A stretch of 64,000 bases of DNA from sequence record NZ_CP017041.1; one strand, 5' to 3'. This DNA is from a plasmid. Of this stretch, positions 11,434-63,284 are shown piece after piece. Position numbers and translations under genes: made by a program. Under the pieces are notes generated by a model. The model saw nothing but the letters and a program-made list of their open reading frames with translations, did not search any database and had not been told where the DNA came from. Every line of letters begins with the position of its first letter. Position 1 is the first letter of the stretch.

Positions 11434-11694
11434 GGGGGCTTCCTTCCTCTTCACTGGTGAAGGTGTCTGCACGCTCCTGGATGTGCGGAGGAATTTGTCA
11501 GTGCTTGATCGCGGTGATCAGCCAGCCGGTCGCGGCAGTGGGTTCGGGCACCAGGGTCAGGTGCACCACGGTGTGGTCGGCCAAGGGCACGTCAATCAGG
11601 GGTCCGTCGGCAGTTGCCCCAGCGAAGGTGGGGGTGGCGGGCAGTTGCTGGTTAAGGCCTGGCTAGTTGACTTAAGCACACTATAGTAGGTGGT

Positions 11695-12315
11695 ATGAAT
11701 CTCAAGGAGTGGGCAGGAGTGCGCGGGATTTCGTATCAGACCGCGCTGCGGTGGTATCACCGTGGGCTTATGCCTGTTCCCGTGCATCGAGTGGGAAGGC
11801 TCGTGCTCGTTGATTGTGACGAGCATGGGTTGCCGTTCGAGGGATCGACCCCCGAGCCGACGAAAACGATCATTTATGCTCGGGTGTGCTCGGCGGATCA
11901 GAAACCCGATCTTGATAGACAGATCGCTCGAGTCATGACATGGGCGAGCGCGAAGGAATTGTCGGTTGATGGTGTTGTCACCGAGGTTGGTTCTGGTCTC
12001 GATGGGCATCGGAAGAAGTTCGAGAAATTGTTGAAGGATGGTTCTGTCAGGACGATTCTTGTGGAACATCGCGATCGATTCTGCCGATTCGGGTCGGAAT
12101 ACATTGAAGCGGCACTTTCGGCACAGAATCGTCGTCTCCTTGTTGTTGACGACAAGGAGATCGAAGACGATCTTGTGCAGGATATGACAGATGTGCTCAC
12201 GTCCATGTGTGCGAGATTGTACGGAAAGAGATCAGCGAAACATCGCGCCCGAAAGGCCGTGGAAACGGCCATGACCACTGGCGGTGAAGAATCCGTTAAG
12301 GATGATCACACATGA
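11695..12315 (+). CDS. tnpA: IS607-family serine recombinase transposase TnpA (MerR-like HTH + resolvase domain)
   Basis: N-terminal MerR-type HTH (WAGVRGISYQTALRWYHRG), catalytic region YARVCSADQK, resolvase-like core. Confidence 0.8.
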   Translation: MNLKEWAGVRGISYQTALRWYHRGLMPVPVHRVGRLVLVDCDEHGLPFEGSTPEPTKTIIYARVCSADQKPDLDRQIARVMTWASAKELSVDGVVTEVGSGLDGHRKKFEKLLKDGSVRTILVEHRDRFCRFGSEYIEAALSAQNRRLLVVDDKEIEDDLVQDMTDVLTSMCARLYGKRSAKHRARKAVETAMTTGGEESVKDDHT

Positions 12316-13757
12316 TCACGAAGCCCGCCGCCCCGAAATTGGACAAGAATGGCCCAGATGTTGTTGTCCGGTCCTACAAGTTTGCGTTGAAACCCACGAA
12401 GTCGCAGGAACAGAAATTGCGTCAGCATACGGGTGCAGCAAGGTTTGTCTACAATTATCTCATTTCCCAGTGGCGCGACGACATTCACACTCGTGCCGAA
12501 GAGAAGAAATGCGGCGTTCCTGAGGATGAATTGACGCCGTTCACGTTTAAGTTGTCTGCCTATGATATGCGTAATTACTGGAATCGCACCAAGGGCGAGT
12601 GTGCTCCGTGGTGGCCAGAAGTATCGAAGGAGATCGGCAACGATGCGGCACGTCGTGCCCATGACTCCATTGAGAACTGGTACGACTCCAAGGGCGGGAA
12701 ACGCAAGGGCAGAAGAGTGGGCTTCCCCCGGTTCCACAAGCGCGGATGCCATGAATCATGCACGTTCTCAACCGGGACGATCCGTGTCAATCCTGACCGT
12801 CACTCGGTGGCACTGCCCCGAATCGGAACCATAAAGACTCGCGAAAATACGCGCGAATTGCAACGCAAAATCGCCAAAGGTACGGCAAGAATCACTCAGG
12901 CCACGATCTCTCGCGGGTTCAATTATTGGCACGTCTCCTTCACCGTGTACGAGAAGAAACACATTCCCGAAACCCACGCACATTCCGGCTCTGTTGTCGG
13001 GGTGGACATGGGTGTGGGAGATCACGTCATCGTTGCGGCAACCCCAAACGGTGATGAAGTCATGCGTAGGGGATTGCCGCAATCGGTCAAGAAGGATGAA
13101 GCGCGAGTGCGGCACCTTCAGCGCAAACTGTCGCGTAAGCATGGCCCGGATAAGAGGACGAAAACCACGCCCTCGAATCGGTGGATTCGCGCGAACAACC
13201 AAGTCAATAAGTATCGCGCGAAACTGGCTAACATACGTCGCGATCTTGCGGCGAAGGCTGCTCATGGGTTGGCGACGAATTATGAGACCGTCGTCATCGA
13301 GGACTTGAACGTTCAAGCCATGATGACGCGCGGAGGCGCACACAAACGTGGTCTGAATCGCGCGATAGCGCAGGCCTCATTTGCCGATGTCAGGCGACGA
13401 ATCACCTACAAAACGAGGTGGAATGGCGGTAGAACCGTCATTGCCGATCGGTGGTTTCCATCGTCGAAAACGTGTTCGGAATGTGGAGAAGTGAAATCCA
13501 AGCTCTCCTTGTCCGAGCGTGAATACATCTGCCATCGTTGCGGTGTTGTCGTGGACAGAGACCTCAATGCTGCAACAAATCTGGCGAAATTAGCGGCACC
13601 GAAATCCGGTGTCGATTTTCACGGAACCGGGAGTTCGCCGGGGATGGGACGTGGAGGCGCGGGGAAGACCAACTCATCCTCGGGTGAGCTGGCACCGGCC
13701 GGTGAAGCGTCAATGGCCCGAAAGGACCTGAGCGGCCGCAAGGCCGGCACGAGATAA
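12312..13757 (+). CDS. tnpB: TnpB (OrfB, RuvC-like RNA-guided nuclease family)
   Basis: 481 aa. C-terminal zinc finger CSECGEVKSK...CHRCGVVVDRDLNAATNL. OrfB_IS605-like central region. Confidence 0.85.
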   Translation: MITKPAAPKLDKNGPDVVVRSYKFALKPTKSQEQKLRQHTGAARFVYNYLISQWRDDIHTRAEEKKCGVPEDELTPFTFKLSAYDMRNYWNRTKGECAPWWPEVSKEIGNDAARRAHDSIENWYDSKGGKRKGRRVGFPRFHKRGCHESCTFSTGTIRVNPDRHSVALPRIGTIKTRENTRELQRKIAKGTARITQATISRGFNYWHVSFTVYEKKHIPETHAHSGSVVGVDMGVGDHVIVAATPNGDEVMRRGLPQSVKKDEARVRHLQRKLSRKHGPDKRTKTTPSNRWIRANNQVNKYRAKLANIRRDLAAKAAHGLATNYETVVIEDLNVQAMMTRGGAHKRGLNRAIAQASFADVRRRITYKTRWNGGRTVIADRWFPSSKTCSECGEVKSKLSLSEREYICHRCGVVVDRDLNAATNLAKLAAPKSGVDFHGTGSSPGMGRGGAGKTNSSSGELAPAGEASMARKDLSGRKAGTR

Positions 13758-13849
13758 CCTGACCATCAGAGTCAGTTCTCATGCAACGGTGAAGGCGGCC
13801 AGGCCTGCTGGGATGAGGATGGCGGCCGCGCTGACGGACCGTAGTGAGG

Positions 13850-22385: not shown

Positions 22386-23072
22386 ATGTTCACCACCACA
22401 AACACTCTCAACGATGAATGGGACCAGATTCGCGCCATCGAGATCGATTGGCATGACTGCCCCGAACTGATGCACTGCATCGACGTTGATGATGTGTTGG
22501 CCGTCATTCCTGCCGCCCCCGACGCCATCCTGGGCTACCTCATTACCCGAGCTCAGGGCGGTGACGAGTTGGCCACCCGCACTATCATCCAAGCGTTCAC
22601 AGGCAAGCTTATTTTGATGGCCACGGCCACCAAGGTGCGCCGTACTAATGACGGCTTCAATGATCTGCTGGCGGGGTTGTGGGAGACGATCATCACGTAC
22701 CCGTTGGATCGTCGCCCTGACAAGATCGCTGCGAACCTCACCCTCGACACGTTGCACCGGGTTACCCGGTTCTGGCGTGCTGATTCCCCCGATGAGGAAG
22801 AGGCTCACGGTCTGGTGCCCTTCCCTGACACTCTCATCGCCCCAGAGCCCGATGAGGACGTCACAGCTAGCCAGGCCATCGCCTTGGCGGTGGACCGCAA
22901 CTGGATTACCGAGGACCTAGCCCGCCTCATGAGCCATATTTACTGTGACGGTATGACTGGAGCTGATGCGGGTCGTCTGCATGGCTGCGCTCCAGCTACG
23001 GTGCGATCTCGATGCCGTGATGGTCGGGCCGTGTTGCAGCGCAACGCCGAGACGATCCTGGCCGTCTGCTGA
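22386..23072 (+). CDS. Sigma-70/ECF-like sigma factor (region 2-like core and C-terminal region 4 HTH)
   Basis: RBS GAAAGAGG before ATG 22386. C-terminal LARLMSHIYCDGMTGADAGRLHGCAPATVRSRCRDGRAVLQRN has the region-4 pattern. The ORF upstream of 22386 is unlikely to be coding. Confidence 0.45.
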   Translation: MFTTTNTLNDEWDQIRAIEIDWHDCPELMHCIDVDDVLAVIPAAPDAILGYLITRAQGGDELATRTIIQAFTGKLILMATATKVRRTNDGFNDLLAGLWETIITYPLDRRPDKIAANLTLDTLHRVTRFWRADSPDEEEAHGLVPFPDTLIAPEPDEDVTASQAIALAVDRNWITEDLARLMSHIYCDGMTGADAGRLHGCAPATVRSRCRDGRAVLQRNAETILAVC

Positions 23073-23814
23073 TCCCTCTCTTGCTCATGCCTGCCGCCAC
23101 CCTACCCCTACCTGCTAGAAACATAGCCATGTCTCCAGCAACGCATCTAGCATATTTTCTAGCAATTGATCTAGCTATGTATATAGCTGATGATCTAGCT
23201 ATCATATAGCTGTGTCTCCAGCCTATGGGTCACGTTTACTGTGACGGTATGACTGGAGCTGATGCGGGTCGTCTGCATGGCTGCGCTCCAGCTACGGTGC
23301 GATCTCGATGCCGTGATGGTCGGGCCGTGTTGCAGCGCAACGCCGAGACGATCCTGGCCGTCTGCTGATCCCTCTCTTGCTCATGCCTGCCGCCACCCTA
23401 CCCCTACCTGCTAGAAACATAGCCATGTCTCCAGCAACGCATCTAGCATATTTTCTAGCAATTGATCTAGCTATGTATATAGCTGATGATCTAGCTATCA
23501 TATAGCTGTGTCTCCAGCCTATGGGTCACGTTTACTGTGACGGTATGACTGGAGCTGATGCGGGTCGTCTGCATGGCTGCGCTCCAGCTACGGTGCGATC
23601 TCGATGCCGTGATGGTCGGGCCGTGTTGCAGCGCAACGCCGAGACGATCCTGGCCGTCTGCTGATCCCTCTCTTGCTCATGCCTGCCGCCACCCTACCCC
23701 TACCTGCTAGAAACATAGCCATGTCTCCAGCAACGCATCTAGCATATTTTCTAGCAATTGATCTAGCTATGTATATAGCTGATGATCTAGCTATCATATA
23801 GCTGTGTCTCCAGC
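22937..23814. repeat. Tandem direct repeat, about 296 bp x 3 (third copy slightly truncated)
   Basis: Identical 69-aa artifact ORFs recur at a 296-bp period (22996, 23292, 23588). Each unit = the last ~46 codons of the sigma-like gene + a Pro-rich spacer + an AT-rich CTAG-rich segment (tctagcatattttctagcaattgatctagctatgtatatagctgatgatctagctatcatatagctg). Confidence 0.85.
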
Positions 23815-23898
23815 CCAAATGACAGCCCAATGGCATGCTTGCCACAGGAAGGTGCGTCAGCCTCCCGAAATACTGGAAGGAGCTTTACCGTGCAGGAC

Positions 23899-41903: not shown

Positions 41904-42661
41904 GGTCACTGCGGCGAAACATCATGGTTGTGGCTGGTGTGCTCGGCGTCGCGGTAGCGGCGGGCCCGACCTTAGCCAGGTCGTTGCCGTTTGCCGACAG
42001 GTCTCAGCCGCCGACGACCAGAAATGCCACCCAGGCGGCCGCAACCGGTGCAACGGCTGCGGCGGGCGCGCTCAACCGTCTGCCAGTCAAAGGCAAAGCA
42101 GCGATGACCGGATACACCCGGACCCAATTCGGGCAGGCGTGGACCGATGACACCGACCGGGAGTTGACCCGCCCCTGGGGCCACAACGGATGCGACACCC
42201 GCAACGATGCCCTTGCCCGCGACCTGGTCGAGGCCCACCTGAAACCCGGATCACGATGCGTGGTCGTCTCCGGGCGACTCCACGACCCCTACACCGGGTC
42301 CACACTCGCCTGGCGGCGCGGCCGGCACACCTCGACAACAGTCCAAATCGACCACGTCGTAGCCCTCGGGAACGCGTGGATTACCGGCGCGCAAAAACTC
42401 TCACCGCTGCAACGCACCGCCCTGGCCAACGACCCGTTGAACTTGCTGGCTGTCGACGGACCCGCTAATGAGGCCAAACGAGACAGGGATGCAGCGACCT
42501 GGCTACCCCCTAACAAGGCCTACAGATGCGACTATGTGGCCCGCCAAATCGCCGTCAAAATGAAGTACCAGCTGTGGGTCACCGCCGCAGAGAAGACCGC
42601 TATGGCGCGGGTATTGCACCGCTGCCCGACCCAGACACTCCCTGTAGGAGCCACACGATGA
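41898..42661 (+). CDS. Secreted His-Me finger/HNH-like nuclease (DUF1524-like)
   Basis: Signal/TM MRSLRRNIMVVAGVLGVAVAAG. Motif IDHVVALGNAW...N...NLLAVDGPANEAKRD. Confidence 0.45.
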
Positions 42662-42822
42662 CCACCCATTGGATCCCCGAACAACTCCTAGAACCCGGAG
42701 TCGGAGTCATCCTCGACACCGAAACCACCGACCTGGACGGGCGCATCATCGAAATATCGATCATTGACGCAGCCACCGGGACGGTCCTGATGGACCAACT
42801 CATCAACCGTTGCACGAGATAA
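42658..42822 (+). pseudogene. N-terminal fragment (54 aa) of a DEDDh 3'-5' exonuclease (DnaQ-like), truncated
   Basis: Exo I motif ILDTETTDLDGRIIEISII. Terminates ...INRCTR* inside a sequence nearly identical to the IS607 tnpB 3' end/right end. Confidence 0.5.
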
Positions 42823-42854
42823 CCTGACTACTCAAGTTAGTTCTCGTGCAACGG
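42807..42854 (+). mobile_element. Solo IS607-like right-end hairpin element (about 85% identical to 13752..13796)
   Basis: ccgttgcacgagataacctgactactcaagttagttctcgtgcaacgg vs ggcacgagataacctgaccatcagagtcagttctcatgcaacgg. Perfect 12-bp inverted-repeat arms. Confidence 0.5.
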
Positions 42855-42937
42855 TTGTTTAGAGGAAGGGGGCCGGGCGGTGAGCCCGGGCCCCTGGTGT
42901 GTGCTGAGTCGGCCAACGGGCCCAGCACACAGGTCTG

Positions 42938-43414
42938 TTATGAGGCGCTGGCCTGTTTCGGGCGGCCTGCCTTAGGCTGGCGTGTCCGCGCCCACTGCTC
43001 GGCGGCGGCTTTGGGAAACAGCGGGCCGGCCGCGGTCTTGATGACAGGTGCGGGGAACCCGGCGGTGGCGGCAAGCTGACGGATACGCTGACGTGAGAGG
43101 CCCGCAAGGTGAGCGATCTCGGTGTATCCGACTACTGGGGGAAACAGTGGCCGGTCAAGGTCTGCGAAGAACTCTCCTTCGGGGCGGGCCTCGAGTCCTG
43201 TCACGGTGACATCGCCGCACGCCTCGACGATAGCTGTGCGGGCTGTCTCGGCAGCATGGAGCAGGGAGTCAGCTTCGACGAACACCGAAATTGATCCGGT
43301 GTGCCCGTCCTGGCTCAGTGAGGCGACCGGGGACAGATGATCGAGTGCTTCCAGGGCATCGAGCATCATGTCTTCGCTGACTGCGCGAAGGGACAGGCGA
43401 ACGTGCCACATCAT
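42938..43414 (-). CDS. HicB-like antitoxin with C-terminal HTH (putative)
   Basis: Downstream partner of a HicA-like gene. C-terminal TEIAHLAGLSRQRIRQL HTH. Confidence 0.4.
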   Translation of the reverse strand: MMWHVRLSLRAVSEDMMLDALEALDHLSPVASLSQDGHTGSISVFVEADSLLHAAETARTAIVEACGDVTVTGLEARPEGEFFADLDRPLFPPVVGYTEIAHLAGLSRQRIRQLAATAGFPAPVIKTAAGPLFPKAAAEQWARTRQPKAGRPKQASAS

Positions 43415-43484
43415 GCATTCTCCTTTCGTGTCGATGTATCTCATGGAGGGGATAGGGGGCTGGGGCTCCAGCCCCCCGTGACTG

Positions 43485-43694
43485 CTAGACAGTGAATCCC
43501 GAGCGCCTCAGTTCGGAAAGCATGTTGGCCCATGCTCTGCGATCCGATGGAGTCTTGTGGATCATGACCGCTGATCGTGACGTATCCGGCGGGTAGATCA
43601 TCCATCCCTTGCGCCGGGTCTCGATGCGGGCACCTTGCTCAGATTCCAGTTCCTTGAACAGTTTCTTAAGCGACTTGCGGTACTCGTTTCCCAT
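43485..43694 (-). CDS. HicA-like toxin (putative)
   Basis: 69 aa, RRKGWMIYPPDTSRSAVMIHKTP...LSELRRSGF pattern similar to the HicA fold. Confidence 0.4.
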   Translation of the reverse strand: MGNEYRKSLKKLFKELESEQGARIETRRKGWMIYPPDTSRSAVMIHKTPSDRRAWANMLSELRRSGFTV

Positions 43695-44364: not shown

Positions 44365-44429
44365 ATGCGTAGTATTTCTATTGTCAACACCAAGGGTGGG
44401 GTTGGGAAGACGACCACGGCGGTCTACCT
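44365..44429 (+). pseudogene. parA: 5' fragment of a parA gene (MRSISIVNTKGGVGKTTTAVYL) interrupted by IS copy 1
   Basis: Walker A KGGVGKTT. Continuation (ATALAAQYRVVLLDADPQGS...) found after IS copy 2 at 63285. Confidence 0.65.
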
Positions 44430-44477
44430 AGGGTGTGTCTCCTATATGTGAGGTGAGGGTCGCGAGATACTGGCGGG

Positions 44478-44894
44478 GTGAATGAGAAGTCTCGGTTTGA
44501 GGCGATGACGGATGAGCAGTGGGAGCGTGTGGAGCCCCTGTTGCCAACGAACTGTGGGCGTCGGGGTCGCCCGTTCTCGAATAGTCGGATGATCGTCAAC
44601 GGGATCATCTACCGCTACAGGACGGGGATTCCTTGGAGAGACCTGCCTCGTGAGAGGTATGGGCCGTGGCAGACGGTGTGGAAGCGTCACCGCTCCTACG
44701 CGAGGCGGGGCGTGTGGGATTGTGTCCTTTTTCAGGTGGTGGCCCAAGCGGATTCGGCTGGGAAAGTGGATTGGACGGTCAGCATTGACGCCACGATCAA
44801 CCGTGCCCACCAACACGCCACGAACACGACGCGCCCCGACCAGGACACGGGGGGCTTCATCGAACTACAAGAATTCTCCGCTGGGCGAGGATGA
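44478..44894 (+). CDS. IS5-family transposase OrfA
   Basis: N-terminal HTH-type region typical of IS427-group orfA. Identical copy at 62362. Confidence 0.75.
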   Translation: MNEKSRFEAMTDEQWERVEPLLPTNCGRRGRPFSNSRMIVNGIIYRYRTGIPWRDLPRERYGPWQTVWKRHRSYARRGVWDCVLFQVVAQADSAGKVDWTVSIDATINRAHQHATNTTRPDQDTGGFIELQEFSAGRG

Positions 44895-45388
44895 GCCTGC
44901 AGGTCACGGCATTGGACGCTCGCGCGGGGGGGTTGACCACGAAGATCCACCAGGTCGTGGACGGCAACGGGCGTCCCTTGGCCATGGTCGTCACTGGAGG
45001 CCAGCGCAACGACGGCGCGATGATGCAGGACACCTTGAAGGACATCTACGTCCCCAGGCCCACCGGCAGGCCCCGCACCACACCCGACACGGTCATGGCG
45101 GACCGGGGCTACACGTCGGGCGTGAACCGTGAATACCTTCGAGATCACCACGTCAAGGCAGTGATCCCCCAGAAGAAGAACGAGATCGCCTCCCGGAAGA
45201 AGAAGGGCTCCAAGGGAGGCCATCCACCCGCCTTTGACGCAGAGGCATACAAGGGACGAAACGTCGTGGAACGCTCCTTCAACAGCGTCAAACAGTGGCG
45301 TGGTCTGGCCACCAGGTACGACAAGCTTGCCGTCACCTACAGGTCAGCCACAGTCCTACACGCCATCCTCCAATGGCTCCAAATATAG
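44891..45388 (+). CDS. IS5-family transposase OrfB (DDE domain)
   Basis: DDE-containing C-terminal part (MADRGY...SFNSVKQWRGLATRYDK). Identical copy at 62775. Confidence 0.75.
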   Translation: MSLQVTALDARAGGLTTKIHQVVDGNGRPLAMVVTGGQRNDGAMMQDTLKDIYVPRPTGRPRTTPDTVMADRGYTSGVNREYLRDHHVKAVIPQKKNEIASRKKKGSKGGHPPAFDAEAYKGRNVVERSFNSVKQWRGLATRYDKLAVTYRSATVLHAILQWLQI

Positions 45389-45469
45389 GAGACACGCCCT
45401 AGACCCATTGACCCCTATCAACCCTGTTAGTACTGTCAGAGTCAATAGTATCAACCCAAGGAGGAACCC

Positions 45470-62260: not shown

Positions 62261-62313
62261 TGAGCTGTGTGAGAATCACGGCGTCAGGGGGAGGGGGAAC
62301 CCTGCACCCAACT

Positions 62314-63284
62314 AGGGTGTGTCTCCTATATGTGAGGTGAGGGTCGCGAGATACTGGCGGGGTGAATGAGAAGTCTCGGTTTGAGGCGATGACGGATGAG
62401 CAGTGGGAGCGTGTGGAGCCCCTGTTGCCAACGAACTGTGGGCGTCGGGGTCGCCCGTTCTCGAATAGTCGGATGATCGTCAACGGGATCATCTACCGCT
62501 ACAGGACGGGGATTCCTTGGAGAGACCTGCCTCGTGAGAGGTATGGGCCGTGGCAGACGGTGTGGAAGCGTCACCGCTCCTACGCGAGGCGGGGCGTGTG
62601 GGATTGTGTCCTTTTTCAGGTGGTGGCCCAAGCGGATTCGGCTGGGAAAGTGGATTGGACGGTCAGCATTGACGCCACGATCAACCGTGCCCACCAACAC
62701 GCCACGAACACGACGCGCCCCGACCAGGACACGGGGGGCTTCATCGAACTACAAGAATTCTCCGCTGGGCGAGGATGAGCCTGCAGGTCACGGCATTGGA
62801 CGCTCGCGCGGGGGGGTTGACCACGAAGATCCACCAGGTCGTGGACGGCAACGGGCGTCCCTTGGCCATGGTCGTCACTGGAGGCCAGCGCAACGACGGC
62901 GCGATGATGCAGGACACCTTGAAGGACATCTACGTCCCCAGGCCCACCGGCAGGCCCCGCACCACACCCGACACGGTCATGGCGGACCGGGGCTACACGT
63001 CGGGCGTGAACCGTGAATACCTTCGAGATCACCACGTCAAGGCAGTGATCCCCCAGAAGAAGAACGAGATCGCCTCCCGGAAGAAGAAGGGCTCCAAGGG
63101 AGGCCATCCACCCGCCTTTGACGCAGAGGCATACAAGGGACGAAACGTCGTGGAACGCTCCTTCAACAGCGTCAAACAGTGGCGTGGTCTGGCCACCAGG
63201 TACGACAAGCTTGCCGTCACCTACAGGTCAGCCACAGTCCTACACGCCATCCTCCAATGGCTCCAAATATAGGAGACACGCCCT
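62314..63284 (+). mobile_element. IS5-family (IS427-group) insertion sequence, copy 2 (identical to copy 1, same orientation)
   Basis: Identical ORF translations and identical terminal repeats. orfA 62362..62778, orfB 62775..63272. Confidence 0.8.

Follow-up and report, generated by a model that had tools for sequence, protein, structure and literature searches.

Solo ends and scars of insertion sequences (IS) are left by IS-adjacent deletions, and quasi-palindromes are prone to template-switch mutations of the Ripley/Lovett type. Elements of the IS607 family use serine transposases, have GG targets and termini and do not duplicate their target (PMC6188088). Published omega-RNA scaffolds consist of three stem-loops and a pseudoknot, with the scaffold ending at GG (bioRxiv 10.1101/2023.11.20.567912).

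This article describes a fragment of an IS607-family right end (RE) fused to a truncated exonuclease gene in a 64,000-nucleotide stretch of record NZ_CP017041.1 (hereafter the window), which is Cutibacterium linear-plasmid sequence. Like IS607 (H. pylori) and IS1535 (M. tuberculosis), elements with TnpA and TnpB, the fragment has a GG crossover end, a GG target and no target duplication, and its sequence equals the RE terminus of full-length members of one actinobacterial IS607 subfamily; unlike a whole element, it has no tnpA, tnpB or left end and comprises only 41-43 bp of the RE. With the PATE and MITE derivatives of IS200/IS605 it shares short length, palindromic form and origin from IS ends, but it lacks a left end, occupies a single site per sequence and is not surrounded by contiguous target DNA; moreover, IS607 works by a dsDNA serine-recombinase mechanism and not, as IS200/IS605, by ssDNA hairpin recognition. 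Set against a TnpB omega-RNA, the remnant is equivalent to the 3'-terminal stem-loop, with the boundary between scaffold and guide (...GCAACGG, then guide) preserved; it lacks the conserved stems of the ~135 nt upstream, among them the presumed nexus and the presumed partner of the pseudoknot, and no Rfam family covers it. It is also like the scars of IS-adjacent deletions, in which one IS end stays where it originally met its flank and the remainder of the IS is lost together with adjacent host DNA, and like Ripley/Lovett quasi-palindrome mutations, the junction turning an imperfect hairpin into a perfect one with the other arm as putative template. In contrast to those scars, the same CCGTT boundary recurs here in two independent remnants of two IS subtypes, and we know of no description of such a recurrent boundary for IS607. 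The feature is very probably the inert scar of an IS607-family insertion sequence, formed by insertion at a GG and one subsequent deletion.

The Resident IS607 Element and the Ends of Its Family

An apparently intact IS607-family element on the plus strand (11632..13789; genes by Pfam, ends by multi-copy comparison) served as reference. A serine-recombinase tnpA (11695-12315, plus strand; Pfam Resolvase, E = 4e-16), whose product carries the N-terminal DNA-binding domain characteristic of the family, is followed by tnpB (12312-13757, plus strand; Pfam HTH_OrfB_IS605, OrfB_IS605 and Cas12f1-like_TNB). Termini and target are GG, long terminal inverted repeats are absent and there is no target-site duplication; the GG and the lack of duplication fit IS607-family transposition (PMC6188088). 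This region of the window is 98-99% identical to C. modestum pKB17-24694.

Both IS-free C. acnes plasmids and over 40 copies from other contexts served to locate the ends, the comparison including L012, located in a different context, and 65 loci retrieved with TnpB from metagenomes. Homology in the IS-free plasmids resumes at GGTGAAGG (13788). All full-length copies end in ...TCTCGTGCAAC (...GCAAC); next comes GG, or in rare cases GT, GC or AG, and beyond it unrelated DNA, and the sequence upstream of the RE terminus (13747-13789 on the plus strand of the resident copy, from the comparison of copies) always reads AAGGCCGG(C/T)(A/G)CGAGATAA. At the left end (LE) the order is flank, GG, GYGGCGAGCAGTTGC; an LE boundary at 11640-11643, suggested by BLAST against the C. 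acnes plasmids, was dropped for ~11632-11634 on the basis of the more than 40 copies.

Other features of the element were observed along the way. The LE motif TAGTTGACTTAAGCA (11632-11680) recurs in inverted orientation in the RE inner hairpin of some members (GAGCTGACTTAAGTA; cf. 13760-13785), and motifs of this type, common to both ends, are candidate TnpA-binding motifs. The left flank of the resident copy (GGTGGCGGG) resembles the LE start of the IS itself. In C. acnes NC_021086.1 (20100-20480), ~340 bp including a 92-aa ORF lie between the flanks of the resident IS607 (window 11560-11650), so this relative lacks a clean empty site for the resident insertion. Three loci from human skin metagenome (L094-L096) hold TnpB-only copies of the subfamily, with a 29-aa tnpA stub upstream, beside a gyrB-like gene.

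A Right-End Remnant Within a Truncated Exonuclease Gene

The ORF at 42658..42822 (plus strand), assigned from the ORF list and N-terminal homology as a truncated DEDDh (DnaQ-like) 3'-5' exonuclease of 54 aa, starts with ATG at 42658 and stops with TAA at 42820-42822, the C-terminus reading ...LINRCTR. Its native part covers codons 1-50 (42658-42807) and includes the Exo I motif DTET, while codons 51-54 and the stop (RCTR-stop) belong to the junction and the IS remnant. When extended via an intact relative, the N-terminus shows 61-67% identity (residues 6-64 of that relative) to actinobacterial-plasmid 3'-5' exonucleases, with annotated matches in Rhodococcus, Prescottella, Streptomyces and other actinobacterial plasmids. 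The 54-aa stub has no match in Pfam and, of the DEDDh motifs, retains Exo I (DxE) only, without Exo II and Exo III (H-x4-D); the relative in locus L023 reaches ~164 aa. Alignments with L003, L008 and L023 all lose homology past window 42808, and the close homologues (P0002, P0003 and L023) read ...L(I/V)(N/D)P... after codon 50, so the RCTR tail is not native coding sequence. The sequence-only reading of this DNA, which had the exonuclease truncated after 54 aa by a solo IS607-type right end, was thus upheld, and a native C-terminus of the same sequence, which would have spoken against it, was not found in these homologues.

The foreign segment matches the resident right end without gaps: 42812-42854 is identical to 13747-13789 at 36 of 43 positions (84%). 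This agrees in essence with the 48 bp about 85% alike to 13752..13796 that had been proposed, except that the alignment gives 13747-13789 and 43 bp. The similarity is beyond chance in the pairwise alignment with the RE terminus of L042, a full-length family member, which is identical over the entire 43 bp; the RE termini of L027 and L079 are identical at 42 of the 43 positions. The TnpB of L042 is ~93% identical to that of the resident element, and the RE matches (43/43 against 36/43) imply that the remnant derives from a sister element and not from the resident IS. Differences from the resident RE lie mostly in the inner-hairpin loop, one of them turning a G-C pair into G-U and another repairing a C/A mismatch. 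A covariance model of the terminal hairpin (R1) matched the remnant by cmsearch with 57.1 bits (E = 7e-14; model positions 6-48 of 48). Within the window the 17-mer GCACGAGATAACCTGAC has just two exact occurrences, 13747-13763 and 42812-42828, and blastn of the resident IS against the whole window returned no further IS607 fragment.

Based on this RE identity and the R1 match, the terminal 41 bp of an IS607-family RE are placed at 42812..42852 (plus strand) and contain the last three tnpB codons and the stop (..TR-stop), an inner 5-6-bp hairpin and the outer stem. The 54-aa ORF consequently ends on tnpB codons and the tnpB stop, as had been noticed from the sequence. At 42853..42854 (plus strand) stands GG, the crossover site of the serine recombinase, which IS end and target share. 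Similarity to the IS copies ends exactly at this dinucleotide, where every full-length copy meets its flank; since all of them end at the same GG, the similarity stops at the true IS/host junction. Leftward, native exonuclease sequence extends to 42808, and LE, tnpA and tnpB are absent beside the RE, which sets the fragment apart from a complete or autonomous IS607.

The possibility that the match is fortuitous, or that it represents the native exonuclease C-terminus, is practically negligible: the shortness of the match is the only point in its favour, and it is opposed by the 43/43 RE identity, by an expectation of 0.14 chance matches for GCACGAGATAACCTGAC even with three mismatches allowed, and by homologues that run on differently past codon 50.

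The Hairpin and Its Junction

By fold calculation, 42804..42857 is a perfect inverted repeat with 16-bp arms (42804-42819 and 42842-42857), the 22-nt interior of which holds an inner hairpin (42824-42829/42835-42840). The segment folds with -32.8 kcal/mol as RNA (z = -7.2) and -22.5 kcal/mol as DNA (z = -9.4). Its core stem consists of 13 perfect pairs (CCGTTGCACGAGA/TCTCGTGCAACGG), or 16 pairs with the flanks; a conserved hairpin had been anticipated at this place and is present, although the 12-bp arms given for it were too short.

Between the native codons and the RE stands the trinucleotide GTT (42809..42811, plus strand), which belongs neither to the native exonuclease nor to any full-length IS copy, these carrying GCCG at the corresponding place. 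GTT is the complement of the AAC at the RE terminus and, together with the native CC, extends the left arm to CCGTT, the exact complement of the terminal AACGG, by which the hairpin becomes a perfect palindrome.

Ancestral-like Arrangement and Proposed Formation of the Scar

An ancestral-like arrangement is preserved in L023, where the exonuclease ORF extends to position 515 and is followed by two small membrane-protein ORFs and then by the GG junction. BLAST aligned window 42635-42808 with L023:1-174 (84% identity) and window 42853-43600 with L023:1056-1804 (95% identity). The L023 junction reads ...CCTGG, GG, TTGTTTAAAGGAAGGGGGCC... (GG followed by TTGTTT), homology to the window resuming exactly at the GG (L023:1056), and where L023 has 881 bp the window has 44 bp (42809-42852). 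Native plasmid DNA, the right flank of the lost IS, occupies 42855..43600 (95% identical to L023:1058-1804) and holds convergent-terminator hairpins together with a minus-strand gene of 168 aa (42938-43444); from ~42869 on, it is 80.6% identical to the C. acnes plasmid NC_021086.1. An RE match ending at GG, together with an L023 allele in which 881 bp stand in place of the 44 bp, indicates the scar of an IS607-family insertion followed by deletion. Among the options raised from the sequence alone, that of a transposon footprint therefore stands, as the fragment ends at the crossover GG and L023 shows this GG undisrupted.

The following course of events is proposed. An element of the L042 subtype would have inserted at the GG downstream of the two small ORFs behind a full-length exonuclease gene, with its RE facing the present 42855+ flank. 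A single deletion would then have removed ~2.1 kb of the IS, sparing its last 41 bp, along with 881 bp of plasmid DNA, that is, the exonuclease from codon 51 to its end and both small ORFs. Codon 50 would thereby have been fused to the RE terminal hairpin, with the ORF ending on the last tnpB codons and the tnpB stop. The remnant probably has no function, and would at most add a further stem-loop to the terminator hairpins already present in this intergenic region. A full-length IS at the scar site was not found in any contig compared, so that the intermediate is inferred. Counting against an inert scar is the resident, apparently intact IS607 (TnpA and TnpB) on the same plasmid and in the same orientation, which bears on a possible activity of the scar in trans.

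The same exonuclease gene was also seen independently inactivated in three relatives, by a nonsense codon at Q47 in L023 (L023:24-515), by divergence or frameshift past codon 51 in L003 (L003:1531-1743) and by replacement with unrelated DNA past codon 41 in L026 (L026:463-702); the gene appears to be dispensable and decaying in these plasmids.

A second, independent 43-bp remnant (L037:3719-3766), situated 1 kb downstream of a full-length IS and beside a RelB/YafQ-like toxin-antitoxin pair, is identical at 43 of 43 positions to another IS subtype (L032-type) and has a partly palindromic flank. Its left boundary is the same CCGTT, which is absent from every full-length copy, and the sharing of this boundary by the two remnants points to a deletion mechanism templated by the hairpin. 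The most likely source of CCGTT is a strand switch templated by the RE hairpin as a quasi-palindrome: a nascent strand ending in ...CAACC would anneal to GGTTG at the RE/flank junction, copy GTTGC(ACGAGA) and then switch back at the left arm of the hairpin. Beyond CC/GG, the flanks show inverted microhomology both in the window (reverse complement of the left flank, GGTTGATGAG, against GGTTGTTTAG, 8/10) and in L037 (7/9), and despite this both window flanks are native DNA. A copy of the right arm would carry a T at a position where the left arm of L037 has retained a C. Only 3-6 nt of homology would then have been available for the second switch, and the template-switch model is weaker for it.

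In a rather unlikely alternative course, the CC of exonuclease codon 50 and the GG at 42853 would each have received an IS copy, the two in inverted orientation, and the resulting long inverted repeat would later have collapsed by deletion between direct repeats of 8 bp (GCACGAGA) formed at the outer ends by the arms of the RE hairpin. CCGTT would then represent, in both remnants, a genuine RE terminus in inverted orientation next to a CC (= GG) target, the C/A mismatch retained in L037 would be accommodated, and long inverted repeats are unstable in bacteria. However, this course needs three events instead of two and gives no reason to expect additional inverted microhomology in the flanks, and no exonuclease ORF reading into an inverted RE (...LINRCTRTNLSS...) exists among the homologues. 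Three further origins were rejected. Derivation of GTT(GC) from the LE terminus (CAGTTGC) fails as this motif is located 12-16 bp into the LE and the bases before it differ. A deletion by TnpA from the LE to an internal GG would have produced ...GGCACGAGA, and a TnpA-mediated inversion between the RE and an inverted site would have left an inverted loop; neither is observed.

Other RE-proximal remnants were detected in L056/L057:3190-3244 (~57 bp), L058:4300-4397 (at least 100 bp) and L097/L098:7621-7750 (minus strand, at least 130 bp), all of them with left boundaries other than CCGTT. That of L056/L057 is also fused to a host ORF, to which it gives the last codons (...GCKAGAR) and the stop. 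Remnants of such various lengths indicate that RE scars are common in this IS subfamily.

Mobility, Guide RNA and Termination as Alternative Roles

Three active roles can be set against the inert scar. The sequence-only reading had considered a mobile mini-element, and the 48-bp CC-GTTGC...GCAAC-GG can be viewed as two inverted RE termini of MITE-like nature, mobilised in trans by an IS607 TnpA: its perfect 13-bp terminal inverted repeats each end in a potential GG/CC crossover, the same architecture is found in two different contexts (window and L037), and the RE interior motif is related to the LE motif, a candidate TnpA-binding site. This is nonetheless highly improbable. The two instances match two different full-length subtypes, each at 43/43, and hence arose separately and did not spread as one element. 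The window copy occupies a single junction in all 11 independent contigs, and the absence of a copy at any other site leaves mobility unsupported. In L023, the ancestral arrangement, its flanks are 881 bp apart, which is not a simple insertion, and an empty-joint allele (...CTCATCAACC-GGTTGTTTAGAGG...) was not encountered among five protein clusters sharing the exonuclease N-terminus. The multiple copies and simple insertions against an empty site that characterise a MITE were sought in ~580 kb of related loci and GTDB representatives: no further copies appeared in the related loci, and in the GTDB genomes a degenerate RE pattern hit two loci only, namely a complete IS and a contig that is identical to the window and is probably a contaminant. 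Against the plasmid collection, the 48-mer had chance matches of 21 nt only; in viral_contigs, CGTTGCACGAGATAAC hit a full-length IS on the opposite strand and one further sequence by chance; and the window holds no other solo copy. In addition, the TnpA of IS1535 requires four subterminal motifs and flanking DNA for end pairing (PMC6188088). As an intrinsic terminator co-opted by the GmrSD_C-like/exo' transcription unit, the scar would offer its 16-bp stem (-32.8 kcal/mol) and a following UUGUUU right after the stop codon; this role is unlikely, given that a scan for the terminator consensus made no call at the scar, the U-tract is weak, two strong GC hairpins just downstream are also present in relatives without the scar, and divergence among the plasmids is too small to show selection.

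The proposal of an orphan omega-RNA scaffold fared no better. An RNAalifold consensus of 36 distinct REs yielded ~180 nt of nested conserved stems, several of them long-range, with many G-C/G-U and a few compensatory changes, the pattern to be expected of a TnpB guide-RNA scaffold, and the last ~180 nt of this IS607 subfamily (window 13610-13789) are presumed to be the omega-RNA scaffold. Compared with a complete scaffold, which has several stem-loops and a pseudoknot over ~100-200 nt upstream of the guide, the remnant keeps ~43 of the ~180 structured nt, namely the last hairpin. In that hairpin 94.6% of cells are paired, with one-sided changes only (G-C/G-U, A-U/G-U) and no excess over shuffles, a result compatible with an RNA stem, short of proof. 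Rfam searches of the whole window at the gathering threshold, and E-value scans of both regions, gave nothing meaningful and no match to the scaffold, and a literature search for orphan or solo omega RNA returned irrelevant papers only. With the terminal hairpin alone retained, an orphan guide RNA from the remnant is unlikely, and the remnant would not be expected to load TnpB. More specifically, read-through from the GmrSD_C-like/exo' operon could yield an RNA of the hairpin plus 16-20 nt (TTGTTTAGAGGAAGGG...) that guides the resident TnpB in trans, for example against competitor plasmids with the ancestral site (L023 TGGGG followed by TTGTTTAAAGG). The remnant does have the scaffold 3' end and the exact point at which the would-be guide begins, the plasmid also encodes an intact TnpB, and the ancestral L023 site (TGGGG-TTGTTTAAAGGAAGG) is preceded by a G-rich, TAM-like TGGGG, a TGGG TAM having been reported for another IS607 TnpB (bioRxiv 10.1101/2023.11.20.567912). 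Such activity is extremely unlikely all the same, considering the extent of the structure lost, the three stem-loops and nexus/3'-end pseudoknot that known scaffolds need (bioRxiv 10.1101/2023.11.20.567912), the different IS subtype of the resident copy (7 differences in 43 bp) and the lack of an Rfam match. The adjacent sequence, suggested as a guide, also has no second target: the 20 nt past the remnant GG match nowhere else in the window.

Plasmid Context and Spread

The region around the remnant is ~80% identical to C. acnes plasmids. The identical junction was present in every one of the eleven contigs read, the plasmids differing by 1-3 SNPs per 3.3 kb, and the exact 54-aa ORF is indexed in 989 assembly-collection blocks, always in the same context. 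Judging from these sequences, the scar arose once, spread with the plasmid and is fixed in a widespread skin-plasmid lineage. Since the scar-bearing plasmids are nearly identical, its conservation is uninformative on selection for or against the hairpin. One 635-bp contig of an assembly named Actinoplanes campanulatus JCM 3059 (NZ_BMPW01000089.1) is identical to window 42430-43064, scar included, and is probably Cutibacterium plasmid contamination of that assembly.

The window contains other repeats. Two 100% identical 973-bp IS copies with DUF4096 and DDE_Tnp_1 ORFs lie at 44428-45400 and 62312-63284, the former splitting a ParA-like gene that starts near 44366 and is intact in L017 and L003. 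A perfect tandem repeat with a period of ~296 bp spans 22939-23815 in three copies.

Concluding Remarks

For annotation, the 54-aa 'exonuclease' is a pseudogene stub and the hairpin an IS607 scar, to be listed neither as a gene nor as a guide RNA. The scar, whose junction recurs in hundreds of assemblies, can also serve as a precise marker for the lineage of a very widespread skin plasmid of Cutibacterium.

A broader, very unlikely scenario is that the terminal hairpin drives recurrent element loss, by strand switch or by an RE/RE' reaction, leaving the 48-bp palindrome CC-GTTGC...GCAAC-GG, and that such relics stay substrates of TnpA or guide TnpB. If this were true, the relics would keep both the crossover site and the guide junction; the one described here could pair with the LE at 11.6 kb, so that the resident TnpA would mobilise the intervening 31 kb, or could provide TnpB with a minimal guide RNA against plasmids carrying the ancestral site. 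The two remnants with one palindromising boundary are a hint that the RE/omega-RNA hairpin may channel the deletions that erase IS607 elements.
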